Below, piece after piece: positions 735 through 7,885 of a stretch of 8,012 nucleotides of DNA (its first letter is position 1; every line of letters begins with the position of its first letter). The stretch lies in the NCBI GenBank assembly GCA_005191425.1, contig SUPR01000128.1, positions 1 through 8,012 of the forward strand. Direction: 5' to 3'. The translations under genes and the position numbers were made by a program. The notes under the pieces were generated by a model. The model had not been told where the DNA came from, ran no database searches, and saw only the letters and a list, made by a program, of their open reading frames with translations. This stretch comes from Candidatus Helarchaeota ASGARD archaeon Hel_GB_B (GTDB lineage: Archaea; Asgardarchaeota; Lokiarchaeia; Helarchaeales; HEL-GB-B).

Positions 735-946
735 CAAAATATTTATCAGATATTAAATTGTAATTATTATCCTTAAATATTAACTTTTTAACAATTTTAA
801 ATAAATACTATTAAAAATCTTTTTTGTCTATTTAAATAAGTGTTAATGAAAATTATTAGAAATTAAATTAAAGATATTTAAAAACAAATTAAAAAAATGT
901 ACCATTTTCTATCTTCTTAATACATTTTAAATTTCAAGTGATCTAT

Positions 947-1489
947 ATGAAAAAAATAAAACCAGGTGTTTATCCTAAAGAGTTTGAGAAATATATAACA
1001 TTAAAAGACGGAACAAAAGTATTTATTCGTCCAATAAAGCCTTCAGATAGGGATATATGGGTAGAATTTTATTTAAGTTTGAGTAAATTATCAAAATATT
1101 ATAGATTTTTTAGTACCAGACCTACTCCAAATGAAAAGATGATTAAACAGTATACTCAAATTGATTATGTAAATAATTTTGCATTAATTGCAATAATAAC
1201 AGAAAATGGTAAAGAAAAAATGATTGGGGTAGTGAGATATGTTTTAGTACCCGAGGAAGATGGTGCAGAATTGGCGATAGTTATTGCTGATGAGTGGCAA
1301 GGTAAAGGATTAGGCACTAAATTATTGTTATTAATATTAGATATAATAATTAAACGTAGAATCTCAAAAGTTTTAGGTGATGTCTTCTTAGACAATGATA
1401 AAATGATGAGAATAATGAAAGAAAGTGGTTTTAAATTAGTTTCTATAAATGAAGCGGGGATCAAACATTTCGAAATTAATTTAAAATAA
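947..1489 (+). CDS. Stand-alone GNAT N-acetyltransferase, Pat/PatZ-type protein lysine acetyltransferase domain
   Basis: YPxxxE...LKDGxxVxIRPIxPxD, LSxxSxYYRFF, AELAIVIADEW, acetyl-CoA-binding motif A QGKGLGTKLL (nt 1298-1327) and motif B NDKMMRIMKESGF all match the GNAT domain of Pat-type acetyltransferases. ATG 947 is preferred over the track's GTG 938 because GTGAT at 938-942 looks like the SD site. Confidence 0.88.
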   Translation: MKKIKPGVYPKEFEKYITLKDGTKVFIRPIKPSDRDIWVEFYLSLSKLSKYYRFFSTRPTPNEKMIKQYTQIDYVNNFALIAIITENGKEKMIGVVRYVLVPEEDGAELAIVIADEWQGKGLGTKLLLLILDIIIKRRISKVLGDVFLDNDKMMRIMKESGFKLVSINEAGIKHFEINLK

Positions 1490-1667: not shown

Positions 1668-2048
1668 ATGACATGTCCTCGTTGCGGAAAGGATACTCCG
1701 AAAGATTCATTTTGTTCAATAGAGTGTATGAAATTATATAATGGGAAACAAATTAACGAAGAAGAGGAATTAAAAAGAAGATATGAAATGCTTGATGAAC
1801 TTACAAATGATTTTAATAATTGTCCATTTTGTAATGTAAAACTAAGACTTTCTAAGCCAAAAAGTTCTGATAAAGATGAACATTTATTAGAACGAAACAA
1901 ATATTGCCCAAGGTGTTATCGAGTATTTGGATATATGATCAGTTCAGGAGAAGATAATATATGGACATTCATGAAGATACCATTTGAAGATGCAAAAAAG
2001 ATTCTTAAAGAAATGAAAGATATTTTAAATCCTGAATTAGTCGAATGA
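1668..2048 (+). CDS. Small double zinc-finger protein: N-terminal treble-clef (DUF2116/zf-FCS/YacG-like) plus C-terminal C4 zinc ribbon
   Basis: C3-x2-C6-x9-C16-x3-C20 with the FCSxxC signature (CPRCGKDTPKDSFCSIEC), a charged helical linker (EEEELKRRYEMLDEL), then C52-x2-C55-x24-C80-x2-C83. Good SD and ATG start. Confidence 0.8.
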   Translation: MTCPRCGKDTPKDSFCSIECMKLYNGKQINEEEELKRRYEMLDELTNDFNNCPFCNVKLRLSKPKSSDKDEHLLERNKYCPRCYRVFGYMISSGEDNIWTFMKIPFEDAKKILKEMKDILNPELVE

Positions 2049-2054
2049 TAATCG

Positions 2055-2060
2055 TTTTTT
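2055..2060 (+). terminator. Possible oligo-T terminator after the zinc-finger gene
   Basis: T6 run 6 nt after the TGA at 2046-2048. Weak in this base composition. Confidence 0.25.
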
Positions 2061-2110
2061 ATGTATAATATATAATTAGTTTTCAATTTTTAGATTATTT
2101 GGTAATTAGG

Positions 2111-4522
2111 ATGTATTTTTTAATAAATTTTATTTTAATAATCATAGAATTTATGCTAATTATATTTTTAGGCTATTTATTTTTACCTAAAATATTAGAA
2201 CATTTGTTTAAAAACCATACTGGCACATATATTTATAAAAAAAAGGATTTTAGAGCACCAACGCCAGAAATTTCAACGCAATTAGAAATACCTGAACTGA
2301 TTATTGACAAAAAAACAGGTACATATTCAGTTCAATTTGGTGTTGATCGTAAATTAGAGAACGGTATAGTCCGAATTTATTTTAATGACCAATGGTATTC
2401 ATCAAATCCTTTAAGTAACGAGAAACAGTTAATCTTAAAAAAGGTAGACGAAAATATTGGCATTGATAAATTAGGAAAATATAAGATTACATCAATTGAA
2501 TGGCAACTAGGGACAAAACCAGAAAAAATTTTAACAAATTTTTATTATTACAATAAAAAACCATATATTATATTTGAACAAAAATTTTTGGCTGAATTAA
2601 AGACGGGAATTAATAAATTTAATATTCCAATTACACAGTTTCCATGTTTTAAAAATGAAAGCCCGAACAAAAAGCGTTTTTTATTTAAAAATAGAATATT
2701 CAGTCCACCATCTTCAAAAAAAAATCCCACATCAGGCCCAATACTCTATTATGATGATAAATTACAGGGATTTATAATTTCATCATTGAATAATTTTCTT
2801 GTTAACATTATAAATGAAATGGGGGCAGATAATTATATTTCATGTGGATTAGAAGGAGAAATTGAAAAAATACCAGAAAATTATTCTCAGAAATTTATTT
2901 TGTATTTTGGAACAGGTATTAATAATATATTTGAGAAGTGGGGAGATATTCTGTTAAAATATTATGATAGAAAGAGAGCTGGACTCTATGATAACCCAAT
3001 TATTTCATTTTTAGGCTATTGGACTGATAATGGTGCATATTATTATTACAAGACGATGAAAGGTAAAAATTATCAAGAGACTTTAGAAGCTTTATCAGAA
3101 TATTTTAAACGTGAGAAAATTCCAATTAGGTATTTTCAACTTGATTCATGGAGTTATAAGAAATCTTGGGCACCACCGATACCTCTTAGTCTTGTAATAT
3201 TAATGAATGGTATAATAGATTGGAGTCCAAATTTAAAACATTTCCCTGATTTTAAAAGATTCCAAAAGAATATTGGAAATATGCCAATTGCATGTCATTC
3301 AAGATATTTCAACCCAAAAAATGTATATATAAAAAATTATAAATTCTTTTTTTCAGATAGTAAATTAAATAAATGGGTATTACCAGCAGAAATTGGGGTA
3401 TGGGATAAGATGCTGTCTGAAGCCAAAAAGAATAATATTGTATTATATGAACAAGACTGGATGAAAAACCAATTTTCTCGATTTAAAATACTTAGAAATA
3501 ATGTTTATCAGGCTAGAAAATGGTTATTGGATATGAATGAATCTGCAATTAAAAATGATATTTGGATTCAATATTGTATGGCAACTCCATCTATGATTTT
3601 GCAAACGCTTGAATGTAATAGAGTTTCATTTGTAAGGACAGGAAATGATTATAATGCTCGGTTTCCATTAAATTTATATTTCCCCCATAATAGTGAAACC
3701 GCAATATTGGCTTATTCAATTGGTATTTTACCATTCATAGATTGTTTTATTTCTAATAATAACCAAGGACCTTTTTATAAATCACCATTTCCAGAGTTAT
3801 TAGCGGTCCAAGCTATAATGAGTTGTGGGCCTGTTGGTCCAGGAGACAGAATTAATTATTTAAATAAAGACCTACTTATGAAAACATGTAGAAATGATGG
3901 ACTCTTATTAAAGCCGGATAAGCCTGCTACACCCATTGACTTAATGTTTAAAAGACACTCTACATATTATATTACAAAAACTTATAGCAATAAAAATAAT
4001 AATAGGTGGTACTATTGTCAAATAGTGAATATCTGGCCAAAACGAGCTAAAAACAAAAGTTTCTCATTAAAAGACCTTAATATACCCGAACCCAGACTTG
4101 TTTATGATTTTTGGGATAAAAAAATAACAAAATTATCTAATGACCAGAATATAACTCTAAATTTGAAAAAGAATGAAAGCAAATTACTGATTTTTGCACC
4201 TTTGTTTGACGATAAAATTGCAGTAATTGGAAATCCAGAAAAATTTATAACATGTTCAAATACGCAATTTCCTGAAATTACATATAAAGATAAAATGTTG
4301 AGTATTCAGATAAAAGATGTCCGAGACAGTATTTTATCGGTTAAAATTTATTCAGAACTCAAGCCAGAGAAAATAATATTGGATGATATTCAGTTAGACA
4401 TATTACATATTACTGAACAGAGTATTTCAAGTTATATTTACGATGAAAATACTAATTTAATACTTATAAAAATATTTTTTGGAAAAAACGATACAAAAAA
4501 TCTGAAATTATTTTTCAATTAA
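2111..4522 (+). CDS. Membrane-anchored glycoside hydrolase-like protein, (beta/alpha)8 clan GH-D-like (GH27/31/36/raffinose-synthase-related), uncharacterised family
   Basis: About 25 hydrophobic N-terminal residues (YFLINFILIIIEFMLIIFLGYLFLP) form one TM helix. Conserved-looking blocks: GYWTDNGAYYYY (3014-3049), IPIRYFQLDSW, CHSRYF, YEQDW (D453, 3455-3457), QYCM, RTGNDY (D517, 3647-3649), GPVGPGD, CRNDGLLLKPDKPATPID. Beta-rich N- and C-terminal flanks. ATG 2111 is preferred over the track's TTG 2099. Confidence 0.75.
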   Translation: MYFLINFILIIIEFMLIIFLGYLFLPKILEHLFKNHTGTYIYKKKDFRAPTPEISTQLEIPELIIDKKTGTYSVQFGVDRKLENGIVRIYFNDQWYSSNPLSNEKQLILKKVDENIGIDKLGKYKITSIEWQLGTKPEKILTNFYYYNKKPYIIFEQKFLAELKTGINKFNIPITQFPCFKNESPNKKRFLFKNRIFSPPSSKKNPTSGPILYYDDKLQGFIISSLNNFLVNIINEMGADNYISCGLEGEIEKIPENYSQKFILYFGTGINNIFEKWGDILLKYYDRKRAGLYDNPIISFLGYWTDNGAYYYYKTMKGKNYQETLEALSEYFKREKIPIRYFQLDSWSYKKSWAPPIPLSLVILMNGIIDWSPNLKHFPDFKRFQKNIGNMPIACHSRYFNPKNVYIKNYKFFFSDSKLNKWVLPAEIGVWDKMLSEAKKNNIVLYEQDWMKNQFSRFKILRNNVYQARKWLLDMNESAIKNDIWIQYCMATPSMILQTLECNRVSFVRTGNDYNARFPLNLYFPHNSETAILAYSIGILPFIDCFISNNNQGPFYKSPFPELLAVQAIMSCGPVGPGDRINYLNKDLLMKTCRNDGLLLKPDKPATPIDLMFKRHSTYYITKTYSNKNNNRWYYCQIVNIWPKRAKNKSFSLKDLNIPEPRLVYDFWDKKITKLSNDQNITLNLKKNESKLLIFAPLFDDKIAVIGNPEKFITCSNTQFPEITYKDKMLSIQIKDVRDSILSVKIYSELKPEKIILDDIQLDILHITEQSISSYIYDENTNLILIKIFFGKNDTKNLKLFFN

Positions 4523-4641: not shown

Positions 4642-6273
4642 TTAGCTTTTTACGAATTCATCTTTAGCGCGTTTAAATTCTCCATGCAACATATTACAAG
4701 ATAGCATGTCTTCTAATGCTTCAATTATTATATTTCTATCAACTTTTAAAATATCAATCATTGTTTTAATGGACAAAGGATTATATTCTCTTGTTAAATT
4801 AAGTATCTGTCTATAGAATTGGTCTTTACTAACAATTTCTTCTTTACTATCATTAATAATAATAGTTAGGCCATAGCGTTTCTTAATTTCGGGTAATAAC
4901 TCTTTTACCATAAATTTAGATATTTTTAGTTTATGCGCTATTTCTTCAAAACTCAAATTTTGTTCAGACTTACATAAGGAGACAATTTGATTGATAATGT
5001 TTTCCATATAAATAGTAAGTTCATTATATTTAGGTGTGTCGCCCTCAATTTTCCATGAGACTGTATAATATCCCGATGCTGCGCCATAATTTAAATTTTT
5101 TAATTTGAATATTTTAAATCCAGGATTATTTTCACTTAAGTCGGTAAAATCAAACACTAAAGCAATAGCTTTTGGATTTACTGATTGATATCCTAAGTGG
5201 TTAACTATATCGGTGTGGGAAAGAAAAAGCCCAATACCAGGATGACTGTGATACCATCCGATTATAAATAAATTTTTAGAAGCAGCTAAACCATCAATTT
5301 CGGCGGCTTTAGCATAATGTTTATTTTCAAATTTAACCTCATATTTTGAGCCGGAAGTAATTGGAATAGCATCAGTAATATAAACATTATCACCTTCAAT
5401 TTTTCCAATTAATAAGCCGTATATCTCTTTCCAATCAACTCTTGGGATGTTTCTATTAGCATAAAAAAGAGCATGTAAAGCGATAGTTAAATAAGAAGTA
5501 TTTCGTATTTTTATAATTCCTTTCTCTTCGCCTGTTTGGTAATACATTTGTTCTCCTGGAAAATATTTATGAAATACATTATAAAATAGAGTCATAATTT
5601 GAGCTTGAAGCCCAGTAGACCGTGCCGAAAATAATGGTGCATTTGGTTCTATTTTATTTTTTAGTATATTTAATGCTTCATCATGATTTTTCTTAATTAC
5701 ATGAATCCCAAAAATCGATGTTAATGCACCTATTTCCTGTGGGGATTCCGAATCATGAGCGATTTTTGCAGATTGTTGAATAAAATTTATAGCTTTATTT
5801 TCATTCCCAGTCATTAAGAAACATAAAGCACATAAAGAATAATCTAATACAATCTGATTATTGATATATTTCTTTATTAACTCGTCTTCCATCTCTAAAA
5901 TTTTAACAAGGTACTCTAGTCCAATAGTAAAAAATTTTGTAGATGATTCATAATCATCAAGTGCTGTAATTGCTATAGCTATATCCTCACAACATGCTAC
6001 AATATTATGAAATAAAGACTTTTTATCATTAATTTCTGGCTCAACTTCTAAATAACAATCTATTGCTTTTTGATAATATATAACAGCCCTATCAAAATTA
6101 CCCATTTCAGTATATAAAGTTGCTGCATTAATATAGCAATTTGCTGCATCTTCAAGAAAAATAGAACCATCTAATTTGTACGCGTCAGCTGCTTGAATAT
6201 AAAATTTAATTGCTTCTTCATAATTTCCCTCGTTTAATGATTTATTTGCTGCCGATTCTAATGATTCTGCCAT
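4642..6273 (-). CDS. Multidomain alpha-SNAP/TPR-like repeats + JAMM/MPN+ metalloisopeptidase (Rpn11/CSN5-like) + tandem winged-helix (PCI-like) protein
   Basis: aa 9-215 form helical repeats (EEAIKFYIQAADAYK, DAANCYINAATLYTEMGNF). aa ~260-415 form the MPN domain, with EIYGLLIG (E291, nt 5425-5427) and GWYHSHPGIGLFLSHTD = H-x-H-x7-S-x2-D (H350, H352, S360, D363; nt 5209-5250). aa ~430-551 contain two WH-like units. ATG 6273, preceded by AAGGT, is preferred over the track's TTG 6297. Confidence 0.88.
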   Translation of the reverse strand: MAESLESAANKSLNEGNYEEAIKFYIQAADAYKLDGSIFLEDAANCYINAATLYTEMGNFDRAVIYYQKAIDCYLEVEPEINDKKSLFHNIVACCEDIAIAITALDDYESSTKFFTIGLEYLVKILEMEDELIKKYINNQIVLDYSLCALCFLMTGNENKAINFIQQSAKIAHDSESPQEIGALTSIFGIHVIKKNHDEALNILKNKIEPNAPLFSARSTGLQAQIMTLFYNVFHKYFPGEQMYYQTGEEKGIIKIRNTSYLTIALHALFYANRNIPRVDWKEIYGLLIGKIEGDNVYITDAIPITSGSKYEVKFENKHYAKAAEIDGLAASKNLFIIGWYHSHPGIGLFLSHTDIVNHLGYQSVNPKAIALVFDFTDLSENNPGFKIFKLKNLNYGAASGYYTVSWKIEGDTPKYNELTIYMENIINQIVSLCKSEQNLSFEEIAHKLKISKFMVKELLPEIKKRYGLTIIINDSKEEIVSKDQFYRQILNLTREYNPLSIKTMIDILKVDRNIIIEALEDMLSCNMLHGEFKRAKDEFVKS

Positions 6274-6448
6274 AATTCTTACCTTATTTTTATACAAAAA
6301 TTTTCCATGTTTTTTATATGATAATTTAAATTATTTTTAATGTATATAAATTTGTAATTATTCTTTTAGATTTAAATTTTTTAGAGATTAATAAACAAAT
6401 TATATTCTTTTTAAAGAACATGTTTAAAATTCAGTTGATGATATAAAA

Positions 6449-7885
6449 ATGAGAAATAGAAGAACAAAAATTATTGCTACAATCGGACCGAGCTCAAGTA
6501 ATCCAGAAATTCTAAAGCAATTAATTAAAACAATAGATATTGCCAGGTTTAATTTTTCTTTTGGAAATTATGAGGCTCACAAAAAAAATATAGAAAATAT
6601 TAGAACAATTTCCGAAGAATTAAATAGGAATATAGCTATTCTACAAGATATACAAGGTCCTAAAATAAGAATTAATAAAATTTTTAATAATCAAATCGAA
6701 TTAAAATATAATGATATTGTTTCAATTATACCTGGAAATAAAATTCAAGAAAAAAATGAAATTGCAATAACATATGATAAGTTATTTAGCGATGTTAAAC
6801 CTGGAGATAAAATATTAATATCAGATGGATATATTGAACTTGAAGTCGAAAAAATTTCGGGAGTTAAAATTTTTGCAAAAGTTATACAAGGAGGATTATT
6901 AAAAGATGGAAAAGGACTTAATATACCTGTTGAATTGAAAATACCAACTATTTCTAAAAAAGATGAAATGGATATTAATTTTGGGCTAGAAAATGAGGTG
7001 GATTACATTGCATTATCATTTGTCAGGTCTTCTGCTGATATTTTAAAATTGAGAGATATTTTTAAAAATTATAAAAAAGACCACCCCGAATTGAGTTCAT
7101 TTCCAGGAATTATTGCAAAAATAGAAAGACCTGAAGCTCTTAGTGATATTGAAAAAATTATTAAACTATCAGATGGTATAATGGTAGCTAGGGGAGATTT
7201 GGGGATAGAATTAGCATTTGAAACAATTCCAAAAATTCAACGCGACCTGATCAGAAAATGCCAAGAATTGTCTAAACCAGTAATAATAGCAACCCAACTA
7301 TTATATTCTATGGTAAATTCGATCAGGCCCAGTAGGTCTGAAGTTGACGATGTCTATAATGCTGTGATCAGTGGAGCAGATTGTTTAATGTTATCTGATG
7401 AAACTGCTGTTGGAAAACACCCAATTAAGGCTGTAGACACTTTTGATATGATTATAAAAGAGGCAGAAAAAGATATTGTATCCTATCGCAATGCGACAAG
7501 ACCAAATATTACGGTTGAACATAATATTGCCCGAGCAGTTTCAAATGCTGTCTGTGAACTTGCATCTGAAGTTAAAGCTAAAGCTATTGTGTCATTTACA
7601 AAATCGGGGTTTACTGCACTCTTAATTTCCAAAAATAGACCGGATGTTGATATATTTGCGATAACTCCAGAAAAATCAGTTATGAGAAAATTAGCCCTTT
7701 ATTGGGGTGTTAGGCCATATTTAGTCCAAAAAATTGAAAATACCGATGAAATTATTACCACTTCTGAAAAATGTATTCTTGATTTGAATATTGCTGAATC
7801 GGGTGATATCATTGTGATTACTGCAGGTCTTCCAATTGCTTTTACCGGGATCACAAACCTAATTAAAGTGCACCAAATAAATTGA
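6449..7885 (+). CDS. pyk: Pyruvate kinase (K+-independent type)
   Basis: RRTKIIATIGPSS, DIQGPKIR, AKIERPEA, MVARGDLGIE, IATQ, GADCLMLSDETAVGKHP, C-domain FTKSGFTA...RP and terminal G-x-TNLIKV are all present. The 478-aa length fits a full A/B/C-domain enzyme. Confidence 0.97.
   Translation: MRNRRTKIIATIGPSSSNPEILKQLIKTIDIARFNFSFGNYEAHKKNIENIRTISEELNRNIAILQDIQGPKIRINKIFNNQIELKYNDIVSIIPGNKIQEKNEIAITYDKLFSDVKPGDKILISDGYIELEVEKISGVKIFAKVIQGGLLKDGKGLNIPVELKIPTISKKDEMDINFGLENEVDYIALSFVRSSADILKLRDIFKNYKKDHPELSSFPGIIAKIERPEALSDIEKIIKLSDGIMVARGDLGIELAFETIPKIQRDLIRKCQELSKPVIIATQLLYSMVNSIRPSRSEVDDVYNAVISGADCLMLSDETAVGKHPIKAVDTFDMIIKEAEKDIVSYRNATRPNITVEHNIARAVSNAVCELASEVKAKAIVSFTKSGFTALLISKNRPDVDIFAITPEKSVMRKLALYWGVRPYLVQKIENTDEIITTSEKCILDLNIAESGDIIVITAGLPIAFTGITNLIKVHQIN

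Follow-up and report, generated by a model that had tools for sequence, protein, structure and literature searches.

The window analysed here, that is the whole 8,012-nt stretch whose first lines stand above (a complete contig of ∼25% G+C, SUPR01000128.1, from the Candidatus Helarchaeota archaeon Hel_GB_B), encodes on its minus strand a 543-a.a. protein in which an acidic TPR/SNAP-like helical solenoid, an MPN+ (JAMM) protease domain and two tandem winged helices (WH) follow each other in a single chain (the TPR-MPN-WH protein). We consider it probable (roughly 0.65) that the protein is a targeted deubiquitinase peculiar to its lineage, with partners or substrates recruited by the solenoid and the winged helices. 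The three-part architecture is more than chance: it is kept in 12 full-length homologues with 29–70% identity, whose alignment has 58 invariant columns, among them all positions of the JAMM motif. That the substrate is ubiquitin and that the flanking domains serve docking is what we infer from the comparisons below. The gene and its parts are as follows (positions in the window).

4642..6273, minus strand: whole gene, 543 codons from ATG 6273 plus the stop codon at 4642–4644; start fixed by homologue N-termini
5554..6273, minus strand: residues 1–240, acidic 11-helix TPR/SNAP-like solenoid (secondary structure of the model, Pfam, VIA)
5038..5517, minus strand: residues 253–412, MPN+ (JAMM) domain of the Rpn11/CSN5 class (Pfam JAB, PDB sequence search, family profile, Foldseek, VIA)
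5425..5427, minus strand: E283, JAMM general-base glutamate in the context WKEIYGLLIG, invariant in 12/12 members
5329..5364, minus strand: residues 304–315 (PITSGSKYEVKF), Ins-1 loop, aligning to the Ins-1 of CsRpn11
5209..5250, minus strand: H342-S-H344-x7-S352-x2-D355 (GWYHSHPGIGLFLSHTD), zinc ligands and oxyanion serine, invariant in 12/12
4828..5037, minus strand: residues 413–482, long helix and winged helix 1 (C-terminal model, Pfam PCI)
4645..4827, minus strand: residues 483–543, winged helix 2, the protein ending right after the last strand (C-terminal model, VIA)

The longest minus-strand open reading frame runs from a TTG at 6297 to the stop at 4642–4644, and its part from ATG 6273 (coding part 4645–6273) gives the 543-a.a. 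product. We take ATG 6273 and not TTG 6297 as the true start because the homologues begin at the same methionine (MAESLES or MSESYES). An earlier note on this DNA, made from the letters and their open reading frames, had placed the gene at 4642–6273, which is correct; the residue numbers it gave for the catalytic site (E291, H350, H352, S360 and D363) are eight too high because they were counted from the upstream TTG, and numbered from the ATG these residues are E283, H342, H344, S352 and D355. It had divided the chain into a helical repeat, an MPN domain and two winged helices, and Pfam, Foldseek/VIA and the models bear out all three calls, the helical repeat being present but longer (∼240 a.a., with 11 helices in residues 2–237) than the ∼205 a.a. 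it had been allotted. Whether this domain order was already a named family had been left open; we found no published account of a solenoid-MPN-WH-WH architecture in the Asgard, PCI and MPN literature searched, no NCBIfam model covers the 543-a.a. protein, and no curated family for the architecture was found.

A full-length AlphaFold2 model built on 12 homologues (predicted local distance difference test score, pLDDT, 82.7; predicted template modelling score, pTM, 0.56) has its 11 helices at the N-terminus, then a short low-confidence linker, an alpha/beta domain at residues 253–410, a long helix at 416–436 and two winged helices that reach about residue 537. The resulting domain order is solenoid (1–240), MPN+ (253–412) and a helix with two tandem winged helices (413–543).

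The catalytic set of the MPN+ domain (E...HxH-x7-S-x2-D), which had been called complete at first reading, is indeed complete and is invariant in all 12 full-length members, as are P304, I305, G308, E312 and F315 of the Ins-1 loop (PITSG..E..F). Pfam JAB (PF01398) matches residues 267–367 with 49.9 bits (cut-off 22.5), far higher than Prok-JAB, which at 23.8 bits stays below its cut-off of 25. A PDB sequence search ranks CsRpn11 of Caldiarchaeum subterraneum first (E 4e-17, 65 bits), then Rpn11, CSN5, BRCC36 and AMSH. A profile of the family's MPN domains, compared with PDB chains, gives CsRpn11 84 bits, Rpn11 66, CSN5 59, BRCC36 48 and AMSH 42, with eIF3h (29) and Rpn8 (22) at lower ranks and no prokaryotic JAMM in the best 60 matches listed; it is on these bit-score ranks against PDB chains that the relation to eukaryotic MPN families rests, the MPN tree described below being one of Asgard sequences only. 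Foldseek matches Rpn11 (E 1e-7, TMt 0.70) and CsRpn11 (6fnn, TMt 0.77), and VIA matches Rpn11 with Z 15.1 over 153 a.a. The view that the domain is eukaryote-like, and not an ordinary prokaryotic JAMM, is upheld by the profile ranks and by the desampylase JAMM1 equivalog (NCBIfam NF041370), which scores 17.1 bits here against a cut-off of 130. The stretch after the JAMM motif aligns to CsRpn11, which itself has no Ins-2, with a gap of at most four residues; judged from this alignment, Ins-2 is probably absent from the window protein.

CsRpn11, the closest relative, is an experimentally proven archaeal deubiquitinase (PMC6043591), which supports the same function here. In CsRpn11 and Rpn11 the Ins-1 hairpin pairs with the C-terminal tail of ubiquitin (PMC6043591), and by analogy the Ins-1 loop of the window protein may do the same. 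From the fold, the JAMM motif and the Ins-1 evidence it therefore follows that all known requirements for a ubiquitin-type isopeptidase activity are present, and the activity itself may be expected.

Asgard archaea carry eukaryote-like ubiquitin systems, and the ubiquitin system of the host genome is eukaryote-like too. Its cluster (L019, G000:C128:59327-62527) contains genes for an 82-a.a. ubiquitin ending in GG-SPKN (L019 1474-1722, minus strand), a 76-a.a. RING-H2 protein (1215-1445, plus strand) and a 150-a.a. E2 (1930-2382, minus strand); an E1 with a ubiquitin-like tail lies ∼4 kb from the cluster, and contig C128 has E2 and E1 matches. Since the GG-SPKN form of this ubiquitin is a precursor, it needs a processing protease.

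Prokaryotic JAMMs such as desampylases and the CysO and QbsD peptidases act on non-ubiquitin substrates, and the window protein could likewise act, as isopeptidase or peptidase, on a ubiquitin-like carrier (of SAMP/ThiS/MoaD type or another) or on a peptide bond that is not ubiquitin-like. The host genome has candidates for such a system (six E1-like genes of the ThiF type, and two more weak ubiquitin-like matches), the gene lies outside the ubiquitin cluster, and the weak Prok-JAB match points the same way. We nevertheless consider a non-ubiquitin substrate unlikely, as the profile puts CsRpn11, Rpn11 and CSN5 far on top of the best 60 matches listed, the desampylase score is far below its cut-off, and the Ins-1 loop, which is typical of ubiquitin-specific JAMMs, is invariant.

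In front of the protease domain stands the solenoid, with a net charge of −15. Pfam assigns it to TPR_12 (48.6 bits) and to SNAP (PF14938; 32.8 bits, cut-off 25), but the SNAP match covers only profile positions 28–91 of 282; SNAP matches nine of the 12 members at E 0.01 or better. In VIA it matches gamma-SNAP (Z 17.6 over 203 a.a.), HAP40 (Z 17.6 over 210 a.a.) and LGN (Z 17.9 over 155 a.a.), so that generic TPR proteins (LGN, kinesin light chain) tie with gamma-SNAP. No PCI subunit matches the solenoid among the 50 VIA matches listed for the full model, the listed matches being of TPR/SNAP type. Weak MIT matches are seen in five family members, over a similarity that spans only ∼23 residues.

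Modelled alone, the C-terminal 132 residues give a pLDDT of 92.5, a pTM of 0.81 and two winged helices with the order H-b-H-H-b-b. Pfam PCI (PF01399) is weak on the full-length window protein and reaches 22.6 bits (cut-off 22) on winged helix 1 when the C-terminus is scanned alone; it scores 35.5 bits on winged helix 1 of a sibling (P0004) and 31–41 bits on winged helix 2 of four others (P0007 to P0010). It is above cut-off on one or other winged helix in eight of the 12 members, by a model that also matches four of 14 ordinary prokaryotic control genomes. In VIA, winged helix 2 superposes on the winged helix of CSN2 with Z 11.1 and a root-mean-square deviation (rmsd) of 1.1 Å over 62 a.a., further matches being winged helices of a lid subunit, CSN4, CSN7, PCID2 and eIF3m; DNA-binding winged helix-turn-helix proteins score Z 8–9.5, only 1–2 Z units under the PCI winged helices. 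When the two winged helices are compared as a unit, the best VIA match is UFL1 (8qfc_B; Z 11.6, rmsd 3.5 Å, 128 of 132 a.a.), which Foldseek also matches (E 3e-4, TMq 0.67). The UFL1 family PF09743 matches seven of the 12 members in one register, all below the cut-off of 23.2 (16.2 bits for the window protein, 22.3 for the best sibling). Compared with PDB sequences, a profile of the C-terminus has no significant match: its best E value is 0.008, and those of CSN2 and CSN4 are 0.2–0.3. The winged helices are probably of the PCI/UFL1 type.

Winged helices can also tether a protein to nucleic acid or to the ribosome: MYSM1 acts on chromatin, and the winged-helix array of UFL1 sits on the 60S subunit. 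The window protein might accordingly be a deubiquitinase or regulator whose tandem winged helices bind DNA, RNA or the ribosome, and UFL1 as the best match for the pair, with PF09743 in one register in seven members, fits this, as do matches to the winged helices of eS25 and SelB and to DNA-binding proteins, and an Rpb6 gene that follows the family gene in the sister clade. The charge of the winged helices does not fit, as it is not consistently basic across the family. Members of the window's clade are close to neutral here, and acidic winged helices are seen in P0012 and P0013, as is an acidic winged helix 1 in P0014. This weakly favours protein docking over DNA binding. Every PF09743 match is below cut-off, and the profile of the C-terminus has no significant match to any DNA-binding family. 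Of the explanations weighed here, tethering is the one to which we give least credence.

In the genomes searched the family is confined to one order. A database clustered at 90% contains 12 full-length relatives, or ∼8 clusters when grouped at 50% identity, all of them proteins from metagenome-assembled genomes that NCBI assigns to Helarchaeota or Lokiarchaeota, under the names ‘tetratricopeptide repeat protein’, ‘PCI domain-containing protein’ or ‘Mov34/MPN/PAD-1’, or as hypothetical proteins. The earlier note had proposed a search of Asgard proteomes for the same domain order; the gene is found in seven of seven species-representative genomes of the window's own order (three families and six genera, labelled Helarchaeota by NCBI), and a search of 393 further genomes from the phylum with the N-terminal profile gives no match at E 1e-12 or better. 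The family splits into three clades: that of the window, a sister clade, and a short form of ∼480 a.a. without winged helix 2 (P0057, P0058), one member of which has a duplicated solenoid.

When 214 Asgard MPN domains are placed in one tree, the family comes out as a single clade (Shimodaira–Hasegawa approximate likelihood-ratio test, SH-aLRT, 84; one fragment is included). The sister group (SH-aLRT 80) consists of MPN+ proteins of 213–328 a.a., mostly 213–241 a.a., including a 223-a.a. paralogue from the host genome that has no winged helix. Because the family's MPN domains are a single clade beside short stand-alone MPN+ genes, the other domains would have been added late, and this sequence-based tree fits domain accretion within the order. 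Of the two origins that the earlier note had offered, the narrow distribution and the place of the MPN clade beside local paralogues agree best with a ‘parallel Asgard invention’, and a lineage-specific invention, not a relic of the ancestor of the proteasome lid, COP9 signalosome (CSN) or eIF3, is most likely.

Two observations concern the short form and its kin. P0056 (685 a.a.) is the protein with the duplicated N-terminal solenoid. Two short-form members (G302:C313:6622-8088 and G301:C97:3068-4456) have one in-frame stop each (TGA and TAA, respectively), from decay or assembly error.

The other origin, a ‘lid-in-one-chain’ relevant to how PCI/MPN complexes arose, would make the protein a minimal lid/CSN-like machine in which a PCI domain is split by an MPN insert and which, by way of its winged helices, assembles with PCI-like proteins and perhaps an MPN− partner into an archaeal complex homologous or ancestral to lid, CSN or eIF3. 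The winged helices give this its best arguments, with Pfam PCI above cut-off in eight of the 12 members at up to 41 bits, and with the winged helices of CSN2, CSN3, CSN4, CSN7, the lid and eIF3 ranking high among the structural matches; one sibling has a weak RPN7 match (E 0.0016), and the genome has PCI-like matches elsewhere, together with a cluster of MPN−, MPN+ and 175-a.a. PCI-like genes on contig C56. The PCI model, however, matches the prokaryotic controls as well, and generic DNA-binding winged helices are within 2 Z units. The MPN domain separates the solenoid from the winged helices, unlike in a contiguous PCI domain; no bundle-forming helices come after winged helix 2, the chain ending within a few residues of the last strand, and one sub-clade (P0057, P0058) does without winged helix 2 altogether. 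With a family restricted to one order and an MPN clade nested beside short local paralogues, the claim finds little support, and we regard a lid-like machine as improbable. Much the same must be said of a Rosetta-stone reading, in which the winged helices and the SNAP-like arm would dock to PCI-like proteins or to an AAA+ unfoldase (Cdc48/PAN) as a lid-like cap, a rather doubtful proposal. If true, it would place a lid-like deubiquitinating cap in an archaeon; PCI complexes were stated in 2018 not to be known in archaea (PMC6043591), and in a 2024 survey the HTH/PCI domains of Asgard archaea come up solely in proteins linked to ESCRT.

The gene set on contig C56 looks more lid-like than the TPR-MPN-WH protein. 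Its three genes lie within ∼6 kb (L007 934-1866 and L007 2218-2745, both on the minus strand, and L008, C56:514-798, on the plus strand). The MPN− paralogue has GWFSSRY in place of the HxH motif, the MPN+ protein (310 a.a.) has a coiled-coil tail, and the 175-a.a. PCI-like protein, encoded ∼350 bp upstream of the MPN+ gene, is helical with a PCI-type winged-helix end (24.3 bits, cut-off 22). Other PCI-like proteins of the host genome are on contigs C153 and C160.

For the targeted deubiquitinase that we prefer, the mechanism would be as follows. The protein would act in the cytosol as a zinc-dependent isopeptidase of the Rpn11/CSN5 (MPN+/JAMM) class and cleave the eukaryote-like ubiquitin of the host off selected targets. 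If it works as JAMM enzymes of known structure do, H342, H344 and D355 would hold the zinc, E283 would activate a water molecule and S352 would stabilise the intermediate, with the Ins-1 loop positioning the C-terminal tail of ubiquitin. The acidic solenoid and the one or two PCI/UFL1-type winged helices would be protein-docking modules that guide the enzyme to its partners or substrates (cf. the MIT domain of AMSH). The gene may have come about when a duplicated short stand-alone MPN+ gene gained extra domains inside one Asgard order.

Several points weigh against this predicted function. At the loci of the window's own clade the gene has no operon partner. The arrangement of the domains relative to each other is uncertain in the model (pTM 0.56). 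The gene lies at a distance from the ubiquitin cluster, and of the nine MPN matches in the genome at least eight have a JAMM motif, which leaves at least seven besides the window gene; the copy in the window may therefore act on a different ubiquitin-like protein or have a different function.

The genomic context differs between the clades. In the window's clade the neighbours are a divergent pyruvate kinase gene on one side and, on the other, a convergent gene for a conserved protein of ∼800 a.a. In the window the pyruvate kinase gene is at 6449–7885 (plus strand) and the convergent frame at 2099–4522 (plus strand; 807 a.a., with a hydrophobic N-terminal segment and no Pfam match); a counterpart of the latter adjoins the family gene in L033 (816 a.a.) and L039 (800 a.a.). 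The window further contains a GNAT acetyltransferase gene (938–1489, plus strand) and a gene for a 126-a.a. protein with two CxxC pairs (zinc ribbon; 1668–2048, plus strand). DNA of this contig is present in hydrothermal-vent and marine-sediment metagenome runs, and no RNA runs are among those listed.

In the sister clade a Rab/Ras-like GTPase (175–179 a.a.) is encoded 21–44 bp upstream of the family gene on the same strand, in four loci and in two reference genomes, with 58–77% identity between loci. Its genes are as follows.

L034 5451-5978, same strand as the family gene: sister-clade GTPase
L036 4429-4956, same strand as the family gene: sister-clade GTPase
L037 4434-4973, same strand as the family gene: sister-clade GTPase
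L035 5443-5979, same strand as the family gene: sister-clade GTPase
G304:C3:585709-586230, same strand as the family gene: sister-clade GTPase, reference genome
G305:C82:5586-6110, same strand as the family gene: sister-clade GTPase, reference genome

This arrangement hints at a deubiquitinase coupled to a GTPase in the sister clade. Neither the window's family nor the short-form family has an orthologue of this GTPase, and the host genome has none (its best match has 43% identity); the link is therefore not transferable to the window protein, and a GTPase-effector role for it was not adopted. An Arf-like GTPase 5 kb from P0005 was considered as the operonic sister-clade GTPase and proved unrelated (26% identity). 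Small Ras/Arf/Rab-like GTPases are encoded by at least 21 genes of the host genome, and in several cases the GTPase is part of a longer fusion protein (open frames of 320–566 a.a.). Downstream of the family gene, three of the four sister-clade loci have an Rpb6 gene followed by a GNAT gene; the GNAT of the window is not its orthologue (24% identity), so there is no conserved GNAT link. One of the four loci also has a second MPN+ gene (L037 7868-8860, minus strand; 330 a.a.) 1.2 kb downstream of P0012, with an intact JAMM motif and a long lysine-rich tail.

To our knowledge PCI/MPN complexes are regarded as eukaryotic inventions. Against this background, one Asgard order appears to have independently joined an Rpn11-type protease to the kinds of modules that are used in the lid and CSN, namely a helical-repeat arm and PCI-type winged helices. 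Should the protein prove to be active as a deubiquitinase and to depend on partners, it would offer a compact single-chain model of scaffold control over an Rpn11-like enzyme and an example of domain recruitment by convergence close to the eukaryotic root; the narrow distribution limits its bearing on the actual origin of the lid.

Compared with known systems, eukaryotic Rpn11 (PSMD14) and CSN5 share with the window protein the MPN+ class and the catalytic motif, and in them, as would be the case here, the MPN domain works alongside a helical repeat and PCI-like winged helices. In the eukaryotic complexes, however, these modules are on six separate PCI subunits, MPN+ is paired with MPN−, and the C-terminal helices form a bundle, whereas the window protein is one chain of solenoid-MPN-WH-WH without bundle helices, and in its clade no partner gene is linked. 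The UFL1-DDRGK1 scaffold of the UFM1 ligase resembles it in its tandem winged helices, which superpose as a pair (TMq 0.64–0.69); UFL1, on the other hand, serves as the scaffold of a ligase, has at least five winged helices and lacks an MPN domain, and its identity to the window pair is ∼10%, too low to establish common descent. The entire 240-a.a. solenoid superposes on gamma-SNAP and HAP40 (likeness being to alpha/gamma-SNAP and HAP40), but the Pfam SNAP match is partial, and LGN and kinesin light chain score equally.

CsRpn11 (PDB 6FJU, 6FJV and 6FNN; PMC6043591) is the best match of the MPN domain in both sequence (∼30% identity) and structure, and both have a complete JAMM motif and an Ins-1 loop. 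It differs in being a 202-a.a. stand-alone enzyme with its gene beside the ubiquitin operon, whereas the window protein has 240 more residues in front and 130 behind and its gene is away from the ubiquitin cluster. AMSH/STAMBP (MIT + JAMM) is set apart by an Ins-2 with a second zinc, K63 specificity, the lack of winged helices and a profile score of 42 bits, but it resembles the window protein in having a helical TPR-like targeting domain in front of a JAMM that, as predicted here, is active outside a large complex.

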